Origin: a virus
Taxonomy: Duplodnaviria; Heunggongvirae; Uroviricota; Caudoviricetes
IMG/VR virus record: IMGVR_UViG_3300028833_002727
Direction: 5' to 3' (one strand)
Length of the DNA: 64,000 nt
Below are positions 1,791 to 17,905 of the stretch, piece after piece. Each line of letters begins with the position of its first letter. Position 1 is the stretch's first letter. Below the pieces are notes generated by a model. That model was not told the origin of the DNA. It was given only the letters and a program-made list of their open reading frames with translations, and ran no database searches. The position numbers and the translations under genes are program-made.

Positions 1791-4523
1791 ATGTCTGATA
1801 GAGTAATAATAGGTGGTTTTGATGAAAAGGCTTTAGAAGTTTTAGAGCATTATTTAGGTAAATCAAAAGGAAGTGTTTCTAATTCCGTTAGAAACTCAAA
1901 TAATGCTGTGTCTAGTAATGAAGTTGGTAGTTATCAACAAAATATTGAAGAAGCCAAACAACGAGTAGAAGAACTAGTTCAAAAAGAAAAAGAATTAAAA
2001 CATGCTAGAGAGTTATCTAATAAAGAAATATCTGAATTACAAGATAAATTTGCCCAAATCGGTAAATCATATGACGAGTTAACTACAAATGAAAAACGAC
2101 AATATACTATCCTAAAACATAGAATCGAAAGTGCGGTTAAATATAAAGAACAGTTAGATGAACAAATTAAAAATATAAAAACTGAAAATACTTTAATCCA
2201 CGAACAAATTGAAAATTGGGATAAAGTTGGAGAAAATATATCTGAAGCTATTATTAAAGCAAAAACGTATTCAGACGTTTTAAGAAAGATAAAACACGAT
2301 AAAGACGCAATATATGAAAAAGAACGCAGTTCTTATGATGCCGCGCGCGTAAAATTTGCTAAAGAAAACCCAGAAGATTATCAAAAATTCCGTAAAAGAG
2401 AACATAATATTGCAAAACAAAGAGGTATTGCGAGAGAATGGTTGGAGAGACACAAGACAGCATCAAAATTCTTTGGTAGTGACATTAACGAATTTGCTAA
2501 TGCTGGTAAAAAACATAGTATTGCAAAGGGTATAGCAAGTAATTTACTAACAAAGGCTGGTAATGCTGCAAGTTTCATCACAAGTGATAAACAACTATCA
2601 ATTAGTGATGTTGGTGGAAAAGTAGCAGATGTTGTTGGACAACTAGGCCCATGGGGTAAAGCAGCAGGTGCGTTGATACAAGGATTAACATCTGCTGTTG
2701 AGATGGCTGATAGAATAAATAAATCAGCGTCAGATTATGCACGCTCTGTTGGTGGTGGTGTTGCTAAAATGAAAGCCATGAGAACACAAGCAACAGATAT
2801 TGCAAGTGCAATTTCTCAATGGGGTGACAAAGCATATAAATTTGATAAAATTCTTGAACATACAGCTGAATTATCAAAAGAAACTGGACGTGTAATGGAA
2901 CATATGTCTAACATGGACTTTAAGTCTTTGGAAGATTTAAGACAATGGGGTATTGACAGTTCAGTTCTTAATCAATTTGATACTTTCGGTTTGTCAATGG
3001 AAACAATTGACAAGAGAATCAAGTCTATATATAGTAATTCTGGTAAGCAAGGTTTAAATGCAAAGGCTGTTACTGACGCCGTAACAAAAAACCTAAAAAT
3101 GGCGCAGAATTATACGTTTGCTGGAGGACTTCGTGCTCTTGAACGTATGGCTCAAAAGTCTGTTGCATTAAAATATAATATGGAAGCCGTTTCGCGCTTT
3201 GCTGATAAGGTTTCTACATTAGAAGGTGCAACAACTGCTGGTGCTCAATTATCAGTATTAGGTAGTGATTTTGCAAGAATGGGCAATCCATTAACCATGT
3301 TATATGGTGGCTTACAAGACATGGAACAACTTAACGACATGATGTTGAACATGACTAAAAACATGGCTCAATGGGATAGTGATAAAGGGCAGATGGAGAT
3401 TACAGCATACAATCGTCAACGATTAAAAGCAGCAGCAGATGCTATGGGTGTTGATTATAGTGAATTAGTAAACCAAGCAATGACTCAAGGTAAACGTAAC
3501 CGTATTGACAACCAATTGGATATGTCTGGTAAAGTAAATGATGATGCAACCAGAGAATATATCAAAAATATAGCACAAGTTGATGAAAACGGAAACGGCT
3601 ATGTGGTATTCCATGAAGGCGGAGGTGAAAGACGCGTTAATGTTGAAGATTTGAGTGAGAACGACAAAGAAAAGTTAGCGCAAGAAAGTAAACGATATTC
3701 AGATGAACAAAATGCTAAACTTGGTGATGTATTGTCTCAGACAAGAACAATAACTGAGCAGTTAAACGACTTGATAGATACATTAAGAGCAAGAATAGCA
3801 AAAGGTATTATTACTATATATAACTGGTTAGATAAACATTTTGGTGATGGTACAAATCAGATTGACGTGACTGGCATGAGTTTGTCTAACGAACAAAAAC
3901 CAACATATGATGCTGCAATTAAAGCACGCGATAAAGGTTGGAGTAATTTATCTCAAGAGGAGATAGCAGTTTTAAAAAGTGCTGGTATAACTAGTAGGGC
4001 GCAAATTGCTGGTAAAACAAATGAAGAAATATCATCCATGATGTCTGGTGTATCATCTACGCAAACTGGAAATAATACACATAATGGAACAGTTCGCGCA
4101 AAAACTAATTCAATAGGTGGTACATCACAAGCAACATCACAAAACACACAATTTGCTACAAACTCAAATGTTGCTAATCAAAATACATCATCATCACAAG
4201 GATGGAATAACAATACTAATACTACAAGTGTACCAATTAAGGCTGGTAGCAATCAAACAAAAGCTTTAACAGTTAACGAAAATAAATCTAATACTGGGAA
4301 TATAGCACAAACTAATCAAAAATTAAGTATTGAGCCTATTTCTATTAACGTTAGTGGTACTATTAAATTGACTGATGGAAGTTTAACTAAATCAATTGAT
4401 GTTACAAAATATCTTGATGATAATAGAATAATTGCACATTTGGTACGTAGTATAGAAAAAACAATTGGTTTTAGATTTAATGGTAGTGAAACTTTATCAC
4501 ATACACCATATCCTGTAGCGTAA
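1791..4523 (+). CDS. Tape measure protein
   Basis: 910 aa, Ala/Gly/Lys-rich helical and coiled-coil composition, positioned between the tail chaperone and baseplate genes. Confidence 0.7.
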   Translation: MSDRVIIGGFDEKALEVLEHYLGKSKGSVSNSVRNSNNAVSSNEVGSYQQNIEEAKQRVEELVQKEKELKHARELSNKEISELQDKFAQIGKSYDELTTNEKRQYTILKHRIESAVKYKEQLDEQIKNIKTENTLIHEQIENWDKVGENISEAIIKAKTYSDVLRKIKHDKDAIYEKERSSYDAARVKFAKENPEDYQKFRKREHNIAKQRGIAREWLERHKTASKFFGSDINEFANAGKKHSIAKGIASNLLTKAGNAASFITSDKQLSISDVGGKVADVVGQLGPWGKAAGALIQGLTSAVEMADRINKSASDYARSVGGGVAKMKAMRTQATDIASAISQWGDKAYKFDKILEHTAELSKETGRVMEHMSNMDFKSLEDLRQWGIDSSVLNQFDTFGLSMETIDKRIKSIYSNSGKQGLNAKAVTDAVTKNLKMAQNYTFAGGLRALERMAQKSVALKYNMEAVSRFADKVSTLEGATTAGAQLSVLGSDFARMGNPLTMLYGGLQDMEQLNDMMLNMTKNMAQWDSDKGQMEITAYNRQRLKAAADAMGVDYSELVNQAMTQGKRNRIDNQLDMSGKVNDDATREYIKNIAQVDENGNGYVVFHEGGGERRVNVEDLSENDKEKLAQESKRYSDEQNAKLGDVLSQTRTITEQLNDLIDTLRARIAKGIITIYNWLDKHFGDGTNQIDVTGMSLSNEQKPTYDAAIKARDKGWSNLSQEEIAVLKSAGITSRAQIAGKTNEEISSMMSGVSSTQTGNNTHNGTVRAKTNSIGGTSQATSQNTQFATNSNVANQNTSSSQGWNNNTNTTSVPIKAGSNQTKALTVNENKSNTGNIAQTNQKLSIEPISINVSGTIKLTDGSLTKSIDVTKYLDDNRIIAHLVRSIEKTIGFRFNGSETLSHTPYPVA

Positions 4524-13100: not shown

Positions 13101-15556
13101 CACAACCAAGTTACGATAAGTATAGTGCGCGAAATATATTTTCTGGTGTTAAAGAGTTTTATGACAAACGAGGAAATAAAAAAGAAAATACTGGGTATGA
13201 TGAATATAAACCTTTAATGGAAACTAAAAGATTTGATGTTGGCGCTGATGTTACTACTGCTGATAAACAATATGCCTTTGCAACTTATTTTTTATCTTTA
13301 TTATGCGGCGGCACAAAAGAAAAAGGAGCATTAGGAAAGATCCTTGATGTTCTTGGTGCAAAAACTAGTTTTACAGCCCTACGCAAAGTAGATTTATTAT
13401 ATTTAGGTGGCTCATTGTATTTTGCAACATGTTTTGAAAATTCAAAATGGAATGAAGGACAAACAGAGAAAAAAATTGCTGAACTAACATTTAACGGTGA
13501 ATTAGGTTCTGGTTTACTTGGTGATATTTACAAAAAAGATAAACAAACATTGTATAGTATCACAAGTTTCATGGATGGTGGTACCATAAATAAATTAGGA
13601 CAATCGTTAATTGATAATTTTAAAGAATGGTGTGATAATGAATTGTTTGGTGGTAAACAAATGTATAATAAATTAAGCGGCGGAGGTGATGCATCAGAAT
13701 ATTTCACTTTATCTGGTTTTATGTCTAACGCTAATGGATATACAGATGTTCAGGGATATACAAAAACAAGTGAATGCTCAAAATGGTTAACAGATTTGGC
13801 TTATAGTTATGAATTTATTTACGTGCTAGGAACTAAAGATAACAAAGATATTAAACTATCTAAAACCAAAGAAATCTATCCATTTTTAAAGAAATTGGCT
13901 GATAAAATTAAAGAAGAAGAGGAAAACGCAACAAACAATACTCAAAACAACAGTATTACGACTAGTGATGACAATGAAATAGAAGTTAAACGTGCGTTAT
14001 ATTATACACTTAAAAACTTATATGATAAGTGGCTTTGTGGATATTGTTATGATGAGTTCAAATTAAATAAACCAGACGAAGATTTGGAGTTCCGTAAACA
14101 ACGTTTTTGTCAATCAATTTCTGAAAAACCTGGTAAAAAGGTTAAAACATCAGAATACAATAACTTTGTTTATGTGGATCAGTTTTTTAACGATATTTCA
14201 TCACACTATATGATGGATGTTGATACTATTTCAAGTAAATTAGTCGATATATATACTGGTAATAAGAATTTGGATATTTATTCATTCATGTCATTTATGG
14301 CTGAAAAGAATAATCTTATGCTAATAGCATTACCTGTGTATAATAACATGTATAATGCAAAATCAATAGCAAGTGTTTTCACACCGAACACGTTGTATAA
14401 TATCAACAATTACGATAATTCCAATGGTATTGGTACAACATATGTTGTGATGCACGCTAGTGAGGTTTCCCACCAGTCGGAATTGTATCAAGGGTATGAA
14501 TATTGTAGGGATTATCCTGATCTTGCAGGGGTTGGATTAAATCAACAGCCAGTCGATATAAAATTGTTTAATGTTTCTGGTGCAGATGATAACACTAAAT
14601 TAAATTACAATGTTTCAGCATTTGCAGTGTCTTATTCAAAACAAAATCAGATGTATTTTAAGAAGATAAATGTTAATATGGATAATCCAAAAATGACTGA
14701 TGAGGCAATACGAAACGTTTTAGTGTTGTCCGAAGGTGGTTCACAGTCTGATATTAACCAACCAATAACAATTGGACAAAATATATATTCAATATACTCA
14801 AATCGTTCATATACTTGTACAGTTGAAATGATGGGATGCGCTAATATTACGCCTTTAATGTATTTCCAATTAAACAATATACCAATGTTTAGGGGATTAT
14901 ATATGATTATTAGTGTCAAACACTCAATTAAAGCTGGTGACATGACAACCGTATTTACTGGTGTTCGTGTTTCTAGATATAGTTTACCGGATTTAAGCCG
15001 TGCTATATTAAATAGTAACATTTTTGGCGAGTTAGAGAGTGGTAATGCTTGGAAAGATGGTAGAGATATTAGTGGCGGCTCCGTTGGTTCAGGAAAACGT
15101 TTAGAGGTTGCGACAAAATTAGGATTTAACGACCACCCAACGAAGGACGAGTGTAAAGCGAGAATGAAAACAATTGAATTAACGGCATATCCTGGAACAT
15201 CAATAACTGTTCACGAAGATTTAGTTAATGAAGTACAAAATATCTTTAATGAATTACACCAATTAAACGTAACAAACTTAACAGTTGGTGGATATTGTTA
15301 CAGAAAAATTAACAATCCAAGTCAGCCAAATTCAAATATATTATCTCTACACTCTCTTGGATGTGCTATTGATATTAACCCAGCATTAAATCCATTCGTG
15401 AAAAATGGAAAACCATTGGCAACTGGTGATGATACAACTGCTGGTAAGATAAGAACGTTAAATTCACCTATTGTACAAGTATTTGAAAAGTACGGATGGG
15501 GATGGGGAGGAACATATGGCGATTACATGCACTTCTCAAAAGCAGACGGAAAATAA
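10175..15556 (+). CDS. Baseplate hub (gp27/gpD-like) with C-terminal M15-family peptidoglycan peptidase
   Basis: 1793 aa. Hub C-terminal motif SYTCTVEMMGCANITPLMYFQLNNIPMFRGLYMIISVKHSI; terminal zinc peptidase motifs YRKIN...SLHSLGCAIDIN...FEKYGWGWGG...DYMHFS. Confidence 0.7.
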   Translation: MKDTTSDKGIYNVNRLTYIEPNEFASYYNLKNDDIDFRGLSWNPEDLSISVDLQVIIPNRADKGQVNYTTKIDDVVIHSNGSTPLANYISYFGGTKLSSNEKDKSYLTDNYTNISFGEMKDGKYVDKESLGISSIDINFDAHFFPIVTINFTDVRGSSLFMPSEYNFDKSVGLVDDNSTDSVQSFFSALFHFPYPRFLLSVKGFYGNKVTFQLAVSDFKSALKSETGDYDITVQFIGYVYGLYTDLPLNLVLASPYFNEEYWQNKVDDGTFKYISSNGGVGNEILPYVKFITLVNQKDINTEALGNNTNVKNFLAKKNEIKSLERLLNIHNRLSKDRTCFITKTFEGCIGNKCVFMYKTVDEYFTLNDNLSKEYYDEIRDYLNTFDDSYYLNPAINPYYKNLLTAVGGNVNLIKDDTKYEYLDKFKIFNGIKISEYFDVDEATGKINAVKDRFKTETEGDDVLKEQYTDVDFVNVDKTLMPSVYAGLVINHYDYSNFLTAEIENLRIELTREENEIVEDLGKVFEDIIGFSPTVENFYRMLFAHIDCFMNYFYRKVLDKITDATKKGERTINYLGIPIENLDMPKSLIGSNDANKNEFSVFPFPGYFNEKLDLNGTRMVAMFPGESPSQNFRNIREVSCVDEILKGTELLGVKMNEFLANQNSDNNDYAGIGDTMLSILSVLYGGVNPWSDFKFDSQDDTLNIYKALFFYMTQLVAEKRIGLNTDENGWVKGEYIDRQVDAFLNSGVQLTDSLKNAIKHYGNNTEALRRNVMSHDGEKEYKLYDFRYDRNDTDNIHVYDEYNKNILLTPNSSILIKPNSDLTDEEKTKYNAVGIGEEKDCIGSNNTISLPNGTSVEYDTLKGWNSQLYQIGNGTEYLGGELKLGVSCVSLLKDNTDVYNLNDGVQVQFVAHNGNAVVFWWTPSDGEVTLNVFNEDNNIYNNLSRYYNNGIKEKHIFFVGTKQYSMEQIQDPYRLTPQPSYDKYSARNIFSGVKEFYDKRGNKKENTGYDEYKPLMETKRFDVGADVTTADKQYAFATYFLSLLCGGTKEKGALGKILDVLGAKTSFTALRKVDLLYLGGSLYFATCFENSKWNEGQTEKKIAELTFNGELGSGLLGDIYKKDKQTLYSITSFMDGGTINKLGQSLIDNFKEWCDNELFGGKQMYNKLSGGGDASEYFTLSGFMSNANGYTDVQGYTKTSECSKWLTDLAYSYEFIYVLGTKDNKDIKLSKTKEIYPFLKKLADKIKEEEENATNNTQNNSITTSDDNEIEVKRALYYTLKNLYDKWLCGYCYDEFKLNKPDEDLEFRKQRFCQSISEKPGKKVKTSEYNNFVYVDQFFNDISSHYMMDVDTISSKLVDIYTGNKNLDIYSFMSFMAEKNNLMLIALPVYNNMYNAKSIASVFTPNTLYNINNYDNSNGIGTTYVVMHASEVSHQSELYQGYEYCRDYPDLAGVGLNQQPVDIKLFNVSGADDNTKLNYNVSAFAVSYSKQNQMYFKKINVNMDNPKMTDEAIRNVLVLSEGGSQSDINQPITIGQNIYSIYSNRSYTCTVEMMGCANITPLMYFQLNNIPMFRGLYMIISVKHSIKAGDMTTVFTGVRVSRYSLPDLSRAILNSNIFGELESGNAWKDGRDISGGSVGSGKRLEVATKLGFNDHPTKDECKARMKTIELTAYPGTSITVHEDLVNEVQNIFNELHQLNVTNLTVGGYCYRKINNPSQPNSNILSLHSLGCAIDINPALNPFVKNGKPLATGDDTTAGKIRTLNSPIVQVFEKYGWGWGGTYGDYMHFSKADGK

Positions 15557-15590
15557 TAGGTATATTTATAGAAAACTTTGATAAAATTTT

Positions 15591-16196
15591 ATGTATTTAG
15601 GAAGAATTATAACAAAAAGCAAAAATGTTGACACAATAGAGTTTGTTGATGTTACTAACGACAAATCGTTGGCTAAAAATTGTACAATACCAACTCTTGT
15701 TATCGGAAAAAAGAACGCGCAGGAACTTGTTGGTAAGGAAAATATACATTTTTTGGATAAGAAAATATCAGACAACCTCTATTGGACGTTTGCAAAGACG
15801 GAGCAGCGTAATGAATACGAGAATGATTTAAGAGCATTTAACGATATGCTCCTAAATAAACTTGTGAATAGTGTTCAGTATAAATATCTCAATATTTTTA
15901 CCGAGCCACTTACAAAAGTTAAGAAATTTATTGCGTTTATGCGGAATAGTAATGATAAGGTTGTTTACTTGTCATCAGATATGATATACGTTTATTGTAG
16001 AAACACTGTTTATGGTGTATCTATGAGTGATTTACAGTATATTGGTATATCAAGAGATAAAATTTTCCACAAATTAAAGCAAAACCAACACAATACAATA
16101 ATAACAAATAACTATTTCTTGACGAAAGCGATTAAAAAGTATATAAACGGTAGTAAAATACTTGTGCCGTATATCTTTTTTTTACAAAACGCATGA
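15591..16196 (+). CDS. Hypothetical protein
   Basis: 201 aa ORF with phage-like codon usage, preceded by GTATATTTATA. Confidence 0.7.
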   Translation: MYLGRIITKSKNVDTIEFVDVTNDKSLAKNCTIPTLVIGKKNAQELVGKENIHFLDKKISDNLYWTFAKTEQRNEYENDLRAFNDMLLNKLVNSVQYKYLNIFTEPLTKVKKFIAFMRNSNDKVVYLSSDMIYVYCRNTVYGVSMSDLQYIGISRDKIFHKLKQNQHNTIITNNYFLTKAIKKYINGSKILVPYIFFLQNA

Positions 16197-16299
16197 TTTT
16201 TCATAATTTGTTCCTAGATGAATTTCGGTTTACCATTTGTTGTTAACATTATTTTATTTTTTTTCCTAAAAACCCGTTGTTTTTATAATCTACAGGTAT

Positions 16300-16585
16300 T
16301 TATTACTAAAGATGTTCTTTGAGGTTTTTGTGGTTGTTACGGCTTCGCGAACCGCAACGTAAAAAAAACCACTTGCTACACTGCACTTCATTCAAGGCAC
16401 TGCCATCGGCAGATAACAGTTTTTTTATTATTGTAAGTGCAACCAGTGTTTGTAGTTTTTTCAAACCAAACACCCACTTTCGTGGATAGTACCACCTAAG
16501 TGGCAGGGTGTAGTCAATCACCCAATCGTCTGATGATACTATGTGTTGTTGGGCAAGCCCAACCCTTTAGGTTTGGGTAATTGAC
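16300..16585 (-). ncRNA. Structured element resembling an IS200/IS605 end / IscB-type omega (HEARO-like) RNA, with no associated ORF
   Basis: The minus strand starts GTCAATTACCC-AAACC-TAAA-GGGTT-GGGCTTG and pairs with GGGTGATTGAC about 60 nt later (inverted repeat 16513-16523 / 16575-16585). Further hairpins follow, and the GC content is higher than the flanks. Confidence 0.5.
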
Positions 16586-16628
16586 TGTTAAGAAGTATTT
16601 ATAAGTAACAAAAAAAGGATGTAAAACT

Positions 16629-16835
16629 ATGTTTTTAAAGAAGAAAGCACATAACTTATTTGCAAAGTCAATCAAGTTGGCTTTGAAGAACGTTAGAGGT
16701 TCTGTTACATATGTTGAGCCTGAGAAAAAAGAAGAGCCTGCTGAAGAAGCACATGATGTAGCGGAAGAAACCGTTAAACCAAAAAAAGTTAATAAACCAA
16801 GAAAAAACGTTAACGAAGATTTGGTTGAAGGTTAA
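16629..16835 (+). CDS. Small hypothetical protein
   Basis: 68 aa ORF downstream of GTATTTAT at 16595. Confidence 0.6.
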   Translation: MFLKKKAHNLFAKSIKLALKNVRGSVTYVEPEKKEEPAEEAHDVAEETVKPKKVNKPRKNVNEDLVEG

Positions 16836-17031
16836 TAATAACCAAAGTGAAAAAATATTAACAATTATGTTGAACGAAAATAATTTCGCTAATGCTCAAA
16901 ATCTATTGAACAGCCTTGGCGGTGATAAGAAAGTTAAACGTATTCGTAAAGAAGCAGGTTTAATTGAACGTGCTCAATCAGACGAGAAAATAATTCTAAC
17001 AGAGGATAATAGACAAGTATTGTTTGGTTAA
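16825..17031 (+). CDS. Small hypothetical protein (start may be the internal ATG near 16868)
   Basis: Coupled ORF with LNE/LTE motifs like other probable head proteins. Confidence 0.55.
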   Translation: MKVNNNQSEKILTIMLNENNFANAQNLLNSLGGDKKVKRIRKEAGLIERAQSDEKIILTEDNRQVLFG

Positions 17032-17905
17032 TATGAAGAAGGATGTTACATTAGAGGAAAGTAAAAAAAGATTCCAGCAGATATTAGAATTTACCTATCA
17101 TGGACGTGGAAAACACGTAATGGGTGAGGCTGGCGAAGATCAGCAAGACCCAAATGCTGCTCCCGCTCCAGATGCTGCTGGCGGCGCTCCTATGTCAGGC
17201 GGAGACCCTATGTCAGGCGGAGATCCTAATGCAATGACGCCTGCTGGAGGTGCAGATGCTGGCTCAATGCCACCAATGGGTGGTGATGCAGGTGCTCCTA
17301 TGCCAGGTGGAGATCCTAATGCAATGCCACCTTCTGGAGGTGCAGACGCTGGTGGTGCTCCACAAACTCCACAAGGGTTTAATCCGCAAGATATGGGTGG
17401 TGATGCAGGTGCTCCTATGCCAGGTGGAGATTTAACACCAGATGATTTTGAAGGCGGTGCAAATCCAGATGATGATGTTATTGATGTTAGTGAATTAACA
17501 GATGCCCAAGAAGAAACAGAGGAAAAAGTAGAGAAGTTCAACGATAAGTTTGAGCAAGTTTTCCGTGTTTTAGGGCAATGGGAAGAGTTAATCAAGTCAA
17601 ATAATGAGAAAATCGAGGATTTGAAGGCTGAATTTGAAAAACGTAATCCTACACAGGTTGAGAAATTGAGTATGCAGACGGCTAAATCCGGCCCATTCAA
17701 TGTAACCCCTGAAGATTATTGGAATGAGAAAGAAGCAACTTCAAATTATAGCACTGAACCAGATAATAATGGTAAAGGACAAGGACAATACGTAATTACT
17801 AAAGATGATGTTGAAGGAACAACAGATTGGAAGTCAATTGCAGACTCAATTAGTGATGATGCATTGTATCATCCAACCCTAAAAAATACAATGGGTAATT
17901 GGTAA
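17024..17905 (+). CDS. Gly/Pro/Ala/Met-rich acidic protein with C-terminal coiled coil (possible head/scaffold-associated)
   Basis: 293 aa with a low-complexity GGDAGAPMPGGD repeat region. Confidence 0.6.
   Translation: MVNMKKDVTLEESKKRFQQILEFTYHGRGKHVMGEAGEDQQDPNAAPAPDAAGGAPMSGGDPMSGGDPNAMTPAGGADAGSMPPMGGDAGAPMPGGDPNAMPPSGGADAGGAPQTPQGFNPQDMGGDAGAPMPGGDLTPDDFEGGANPDDDVIDVSELTDAQEETEEKVEKFNDKFEQVFRVLGQWEELIKSNNEKIEDLKAEFEKRNPTQVEKLSMQTAKSGPFNVTPEDYWNEKEATSNYSTEPDNNGKGQGQYVITKDDVEGTTDWKSIADSISDDALYHPTLKNTMGNW
17276..17431 (+). repeat. 39-bp exact direct repeat within a coding low-complexity region
   Basis: ATGGGTGGTGATGCAGGTGCTCCTATGCCAGGTGGAGAT at 17276-17314 and 17393-17431. Confidence 0.9.

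Follow-up and report, generated by a model that had tools for sequence, protein, structure and literature searches.

A Protein-Less IS200/IS605-Type Element with a Probable TnpB Guide-RNA Scaffold in a Caudoviricetes Phage Genome

We found that positions 16205–16585 of the 64,000-nucleotide stretch of phage DNA analysed here (the window) are occupied by a 381-bp insertion, which is probably a protein-less, non-autonomous, PATE-like IS200/IS605 element that has lost tnpB and kept the scaffold of a TnpB guide RNA, and for which we propose homing. Stand-alone omegaRNAs and PATEs that encode omegaRNAs have already been described (PMC10691335, PMC10055086, PMC9581776), and the element is a further case of this stand-alone guide-RNA kind, of the TnpB type rather than the IscB/HEARO type. 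The window corresponds to C1:113885–177884 of the 183,649-bp IMG/VR virus record IMGVR_UViG_3300028833_002727 (G000; CheckV completeness 54%), and public sequencing runs indicate the sheep gut as the habitat of the phage.

Structured Block and Its Gene Context

The initial annotation, made from the letters of the window alone, had marked a structured noncoding block of about 290 nt at 16300–16585. The GC content of this block is 0.39–0.41, against 0.26–0.33 in the flanks, and its neighbours on either side are the plus-strand ORFs 15591–16196 and 16629–16835. All the strings quoted from it proved to be present at their places on the minus strand, between 16585 and 16378. This strand starts at 16585 with GTCAATTACCC..CCTAAAGG..GGGCTTG, and the closing GGGTGATTGAC gives an 11-nt inverted repeat with one mismatch. 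The same strand contains the hairpins CCACTTAGGTGG, CCACGAAAGTGG, and CTGCCGATGGCAG, the long-range pairing ACACTG..GCACTT/AAGTGCAGTGT, and a terminal stem of 8 bp, like that of HEARO. The block is structured, as annotated; the true unit is larger and covers 16205–16585, according to the empty site and the 381-base skips described in the next section.

The minimum free energy of the minus strand, with z = −4.35 to −4.62 against dinucleotide shuffles, indicates structure above chance. For the present copy, folding is more stable on the minus strand than on the plus strand (−107 vs. −95 kcal/mol, z = −4.6 vs. −1.3, a gap of about 9–12 kcal/mol). Since the conserved helices are all Watson–Crick paired here, this asymmetry is due to pairings outside the conserved helices of the family and is otherwise unexplained.

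A blastn search of 15500–17100 against GenBank phages gave no match, and a PHROGs search of the neighbouring ORFs returned nothing. Farther along the window, the GC content reaches 0.56–0.58 at 17100–17400, inside ORF 17024–17905, compared with about 0.30 around it; this ORF encodes 293 aa with Gly/Pro/Met-rich patterns and is overlapped by a 186-aa antisense ORF.

Insertion Borders and Target Motif

The insertion, its borders, and its flanks comprise the following features:

16200–16204, plus strand: TTCAT target, or transposon-adjacent motif (TAM), directly left of the insertion in the junction alignment with L115.
16205–16585, plus strand: ORF-less mini-element of 381 bp with sharp borders and no target-site duplication.
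16205–16329, plus strand: left-end segment, AT-rich and devoid of a recognisable subterminal hairpin.
16586–16605, plus strand: presumed guide, the flanking DNA past the right end, by the geometry of TnpB omegaRNAs.

A sibling phage contig, L115 (L114/L115), whose flanks are 85–88% identical to those in the window, is without exactly 16205–16585, and its junction alignment shows that the 381-bp insertion produced no target-site duplication. The plus strand reads TTCAT / element / TGTTAAGAAG here, and in L115 TTCAT is followed directly by TGTTAAGAAG, with 30 nt identical to 16586–16615. The bases beside each border differ, so that the borders of the insertion are unambiguous. In two DNA runs that belong to other studies, X5 and X6 (the latter sampled from goat gut), contigs likewise bridge the site and skip 381 bases. 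The empty site for which the initial annotation had proposed to compare relatives was thus found in L115, X5, and X6. In addition, X5 holds a copy of 16455–16585, about 92% identical, with a different right flank, which means that the element occupies another site elsewhere too. It should be noted that the joint in X5 and X6 lies 2 nt further left (16202->16584), which would fit an allele with TTCAC rather than TTCAT before the target, that is, a changed TAM.

In the copies of L103 and L106, the common sequence gives out immediately ahead of ATGAAT on the GTCAA strand; on the tnpB-sense strand this corresponds, in our reading, to TTCAT. Characteristically, ISC and IS605B elements have a 5'-GTCA terminus and insert at N|ATGA without duplicating the target (PMC4810608), and TTCAT is the TAM of GstIscB, a Geobacillus IscB element (PMC10055086).

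The two ends of the element differ. A subterminal hairpin is present at the right end (16558–16577), and its left-end counterpart was not found within 70 nt of the end, where the single-stranded DNA fold of 16205–16275 gave −2.1 kcal/mol with z = +0.36. Related mini-elements, L226/L154 among them, have a left hairpin of 8–9 bp with a TTTA loop, 10–45 nt from TTCAT. With its degenerate left end, the present copy may no longer be able to transpose.

No Pfam family was matched by the internal ORFs of the element (71 and 56 aa), and tblastn detected only a 23-aa pseudo-coding tail resembling TnpB C-termini. This trace in the window has 48% identity over its 23 aa and is colinear and interrupted by stops. 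The tnpB frames of L096, L103, L105, L106, and their relatives traverse the whole 3' module of the omegaRNA and stop inside the right-end hairpin, and the tails conserved by such read-through include ..VN.PIV.. and ..QAPIPLG.

RNA Family of the Element

The RNA-related features of the element are as follows:

16330–16372, strand not assigned: two-tier hairpin, GTGG..CCAC around GTTGCGG..CCGTAAC (minus strand), found in folds, upstream of the RNA modules.
16378–16449, plus strand: module 2 domain, with a closing stem around AAGGCA (16394–16399), CTGCC-ATC-GGCAG (16400–16412), and AACAGTT (16415–16421), a motif common to relatives.
16453–16585, plus strand: transposon right end, doubling as the 3' module of a TnpB-type omegaRNA scaffold (R1, 97.6 bits).
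16506–16523, plus strand: covarying helix CACCC/GGGTG with the loop GTCAAT at 16513–16518 (74 loci, RNAalifold).
16558–16577, plus strand: right-end hairpin CCCAACC-CTTTA-GGTTTGGG, common to IscB-type (HEARO) and TnpB-type ends.

By eye, the two-tier hairpin has two G·U pairs on the minus strand.

At gathering thresholds, Rfam gave no match over the whole window, and the plus strand of the element matched no Rfam family at E values up to 10. With relaxed thresholds, HEARO (RF02033) aligned to the minus strand at 16585–16452 with 28.1 bits (E = 1e-3), the gathering score being 83. The alignment spans the whole model and requires a 116-position deletion; a bona fide HEARO RNA, that of L087, scores 103.7 bits. 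The alignment to the element includes the 5' P1 stem enclosing the CCUAAAGG hairpin, which is the part common to TnpB-type ends.

A covariance model, R1, was built from 28 tnpB-linked RNA sequences, with the window sequence and all mini-elements left out. R1 matched the plus strand at 16453–16585 over the full model with 97.6 bits (E = 2.2e-25), and the end of this match, 16585, is the insertion border. The match is the sole one in the window and in the 184-kb record, where blastn and nhmmer also found no second copy of the element. On other ORF-less mini-elements R1 scores 60–122 bits, and on twelve motif-bearing loci picked as IscB/HEARO-type it scores 15–29 bits.

The pattern of the right-end hairpin occurs at 106 viral loci. 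Because this hairpin is common to both types of ends, weak mutual cross-matches arise, namely the 28 bits of HEARO here and the 15–29 bits of R1 on IscB loci. The termini of ISC elements recur in mirror orientation on IS605B elements (PMC4810608), and this accounts for the weak HEARO match on the element. Beyond the first ~55 nt, the element resembles tnpB-linked loci only; a plain alignment with the IscB-linked RNAs L040, L028, L076, and L109 was also tried, and the likeness was confined to these first ~55 nt.

The initial annotation had assigned the block to the IscB omega/HEARO architecture, an assignment that is poorly supported, HEARO giving 28.1 bits where 83 are required for gathering and R1 giving 97.6 bits on the plus strand; its further remark, that the reverse complement is like TnpB right ends, turned out to be the better reading. 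The covariance-model search that it proposed was thus negative for HEARO and positive for the model derived from tnpB-linked modules.

In the helix at 16506–16523, the variable triplets of the pattern GGNNN/NNNCC are fully complementary in 74 viral loci; in the RNAalifold analysis, the helix shows 18–20 double changes per pair and no breaks. The loop GTCAAT at 16513–16518 would pair with the terminal ATTGAC at 16580–16585 in a predicted pseudoknot.

Linkage to tnpB and Strand of the RNA

In 39 of the 106 terminal-motif loci, the opposite strand carries a tnpB of about 400 aa whose end falls within the motif; in 26 loci, tblastn detects a match to IscB-like proteins on the sense strand. A Pfam scan run separately on 29 ORFs downstream of the motif found RRXRR in 16. 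Since tnpB is antisense in some loci and IscB is sense in others, one type of end serves both transposons in mirror orientation.

A second motif, TTGG-N4-TTGAC-N5-CCTGYC, is present in 7 of the 39 tnpB-linked loci, in 1 of the 22 nuclease-less loci, and in none of the 26 IscB-like loci. Scanning for it yielded the 74 viral loci mentioned above; nearly all of those with enough sequence carry a full-length tnpB (about 400 aa) that terminates within the module, and iscB was found at none of the 74. R1 also has matches in cellular genomes, located at the 3' end of tnpB and on its coding strand, with 98.7 bits in Prevotella sp. CAG:1092 and further matches in Bacteroidales from sheep rumen, red deer, and horse.

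The RNAalifold consensus of the tnpB-sense strand contains 21 pairs, 15 of them with compensatory changes, and 69 G·U vs. 9 A·C cells; covariation among homologues, a point named in the initial annotation, is therefore present. The minimum free energy is better on the tnpB-sense strand in 36 of 41 elements and on the opposite strand in 19 of 23 IscB-type controls. The strand preference of the present copy is the reverse of that of the 36 of 41 tnpB-linked relatives. The TnpB proteins of the clade have invariant Asp, Glu, and Asp columns, motifs that can be read as the RuvC triad. By homology, the functional strand of the element is probably the plus strand, opposite to that of the HEARO reading.

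Partner Genes

The 184-kb record (54% complete by CheckV) contains no match to IscB (PF14239), no Y1 transposase (TnpA), and no TnpB of the cognate clade. Its HNH matches belong to proteins of 193–312 aa without an RRXRR or RuvC match. Three tandem paralogous HNH endonuclease genes (230–312 aa) lie at G000:C1:61189–65592 on the minus strand, with Pfam matches also to HTH or zinc-ribbon-like domains.

The TnpB-like genes of the record all lie within G000:C1 6.7–19 kb. They include a canonical TnpB of 380 aa (G000:C1:6717–7859, plus strand) with HTH_OrfB, OrfB_IS605, and TNB domains and a 552-aa protein (G000:C1:13827–15485, minus strand) whose sole Pfam match is the TnpB/Cas12f TNB domain. The statement of the initial annotation that the window holds no IscB, TnpB, or TnpA ORF was confirmed, the TnpB-like genes being more than 95 kb beyond the end of the window; the search of the rest of the genome that it suggested, which covered the 184-kb record, gave no IscB and did give TnpB, which is of another clade. 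The 380-aa TnpB of the phage was considered as a partner and rejected: the RNA downstream of its gene is unrelated, its identity to the TnpBs of the clade is 26–32%, and there is no R1 match there. The complete 356-kb relative G002, searched for IscB, TnpA, and the R1 module, has none of these. Relatives of the cognate TnpB are found in Prevotella and rumen Bacteroidales.

A different arrangement was seen in L087 (IMGVR_UViG_3300009680_000013), where, downstream of HEARO at 1913–2163 and on the same strand, a TnpB-like ORF (2368–3561) stands in the place of IscB; L065 is arranged likewise. The TnpB-like ORF of L087 encodes 397 aa and is 43% identical to the TnpB of the phage studied here. Two elements lying side by side, or an unusual pairing, could explain this.

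Related Mini-Elements

The AAGGCA-hairpin-AACAGTT motif of module 2 recurs in 13 full-length elements, where it lies within the tnpB ORF, 256–282 nt from the right end, and in the ORF-less L226/L154, L197, and L135/L163 it lies 126–171 nt from the end. The arms of its hairpin vary in sequence and stay complementary. Compared with their full-length relatives, the mini-elements are missing about 100–150 nt between the modules, plus most of tnpB, by separate deletions. Four separate mini-element lineages (the present one, L226/L154, L197, and L135/L163) nevertheless retain both modules with intact helices. Since both modules were kept though the coding constraint was gone, we read this as a sign of selection on the RNA.

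The complete, terminally repeated genome G007 (IMGVR_UViG_3300021400_001148; 354,809 bp) holds four ORF-less mini-elements of about 290–316 bp, located at:

C1:11963–12086, locus L320.
C1:25588–25722, locus L321.
C1:29736–29858, locus L322.
C1:245766–245887, locus L323.

As in the window, TTCAT adjoins the left end of all four, and the right flank is different in each. Neither a TnpB of any kind nor a Y1 transposase (TnpA) was found in complete G007. One of the copies is without the nested hairpin, and another is without module 2 and ends in TTTAC.

Proposed Mechanism

According to the model that we favour, the parent would have been a TnpB-encoding transposon of the IS605B/IS1341 type, from which tnpB was lost and the two omegaRNA/reRNA modules and the right end were retained. 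The element would have inserted after TTCAT in the gap between two phage genes, with no target duplication. Its plus strand would be transcribed codirectionally with the flanking genes, and the scaffold, at about 16378–16585, would run on into some 16–20 nt of the flank (16586–16605) as the guide; that the flank beyond the right end serves as the guide is the established geometry of TnpB omegaRNAs (PMC10055086). A compatible TnpB would take up the RNA in trans and might come from the unseen half of the phage genome, from a co-infecting element, or from the Bacteroidales host. Together with the RNA it would cut genomes that have the empty site (TTCAT plus the guide match), as in the sibling phages, and recombinational repair after the cut would copy or keep the element. 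Transposition would need TnpA in trans.

Contigs from RNA libraries of one sheep-gut sample (X3 and X4), which may include DNA, cover 16218/16222–17000 and 15870–16098 and leave 16099–16217 uncovered. The guide region was also considered as a repeated phage promoter box and rejected in this role, with 10 matches vs. 6.8 expected.

The initial annotation had concluded that the block is an orphan IS200/IS605 end with a guide-RNA scaffold, either non-autonomous or stand-alone, possibly domesticated by the phage. The first part agrees with our data; nothing supports the domestication.

A bolder proposal is that giant phages of rumen and gut Bacteroidales carry guide-RNA-only mini-transposons with no nuclease or transposase, which borrow the TnpB of the host during infection and, with a guide set by the insertion site, have it cut co-infecting siblings that are without the insertion. 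We regard this as a rather long shot. If true, it would represent RNA-guided homing or the exclusion of competitors between phages, like the free-standing homing endonucleases of T-even phages.

Alternative Explanations

The most serious alternative, which we consider unlikely yet well worth weighing, is a decaying fossil, that is, a former tnpB transposon or mini-element that now has no functional RNA and no movement, the polymorphism among siblings being one old insertion. It would account for the left end without a single-stranded DNA hairpin, the absence of a cognate TnpB or TnpA in 184 kb, the single copy in the record, and a strand asymmetry of folding unlike that of working relatives. 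However, all the conserved helices of both modules are intact and Watson–Crick paired, the R1 score is as high as in tnpB-linked copies, and independent lineages of mini-elements keep both modules, which argues against decay.

It is much less probable that the minus strand encodes an IscB-type omegaRNA (HEARO), with its guide upstream of 16585 and IscB encoded elsewhere. The whole-model match at 16585–16452, the better folding of the minus strand (z = −4.6), an 8-bp P1 stem resembling the HEARO consensus, and the first 33 nt, which are almost identical to those of the IscB loci L040 and L028, all point in this direction. However, 28 bits with a 116-position deletion are far under the gathering score, genuine HEARO reaching about 100 bits (L087), and R1 reaches 97.6 bits on the other strand. 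The second motif and module 2 are in none of the 26 loci with a sense-strand IscB-like match, no IscB was found in the record or in the complete relative, and the mirror-orientation termini of ISC and IS605B (PMC4810608) account for the weak match.

Finally, it is hardly credible that the phage has taken the element over to regulate the neighbouring genes, be it as promoter, terminator, or antisense RNA. Its place 44 nt ahead of the next gene's start codon might suggest such a role, but the sibling and more distant relatives manage without the element, it shows no promoter or terminator consensus of its own, and its sequence is explained by the transposon family.

Comparison with Known Systems and Significance

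Like the published stand-alone omegaRNAs and PATEs, the probable TnpB-type mini-element described here has no protein gene, has ends of the IS200/IS605 type, and was evidently mobilised, as empty sites exist. By analogy, its scaffold would adjoin the end and use the flank as the guide, and the nuclease and transposase would come from elsewhere; stand-alone omegaRNAs acting in trans are described in PMC10691335, which cites Altae-Tran et al. 2021. In the published cases, a compatible effector is present in the genome, whereas here there is none in the 184-kb record, and G007 is without TnpB or TnpA. The scaffold is also, unlike in the published cases, shortened by about 100–150 nt between the modules relative to full-length relatives.

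With the IS605B/IS1341-type (TnpB-only) elements (Kapitonov et al. 2016, PMC4810608), the element shares the right end (bottom-strand GTCAA), the N|ATGA = TTCAT| target, and the absence of duplication. It differs from them in having no tnpB ORF of about 400 aa (about 1.2 kb), in its length of 381 bp vs. about 1.34 kb, and in its degenerate left-end hairpin. The element lacks the overlap with the 3' end of tnpB of a canonical TnpB omegaRNA locus and is therefore filed as a stand-alone derivative. The terminal GUCAA..UUGAC stem, the CCC..CCUAAAGG..GGG hairpin, and the place at the right end are as in HEARO (RF02033), but no IscB ORF follows it, the remainder of the RNA is unrelated, and the functional strand, judged by homology, is probably the opposite one.

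The current understanding of OMEGA systems is unchanged by these results. What they correct is a plausible misfiling: the mirror-image ends of IscB and TnpB elements give weak cross-matches of about 20–29 bits, and for sub-threshold HEARO matches in phage genomes the opposite strand should be checked. The independent deletions of about 100–150 nt suggest a dispensable part of the omegaRNA scaffold, which is useful for shortening TnpB guide RNAs.

Taken together, our results indicate that very large phage genomes devoid of TnpB and TnpA harbour guide-RNA elements without effectors, several of them in the case of G007, and that such elements must rely on the infected cell or other elements.
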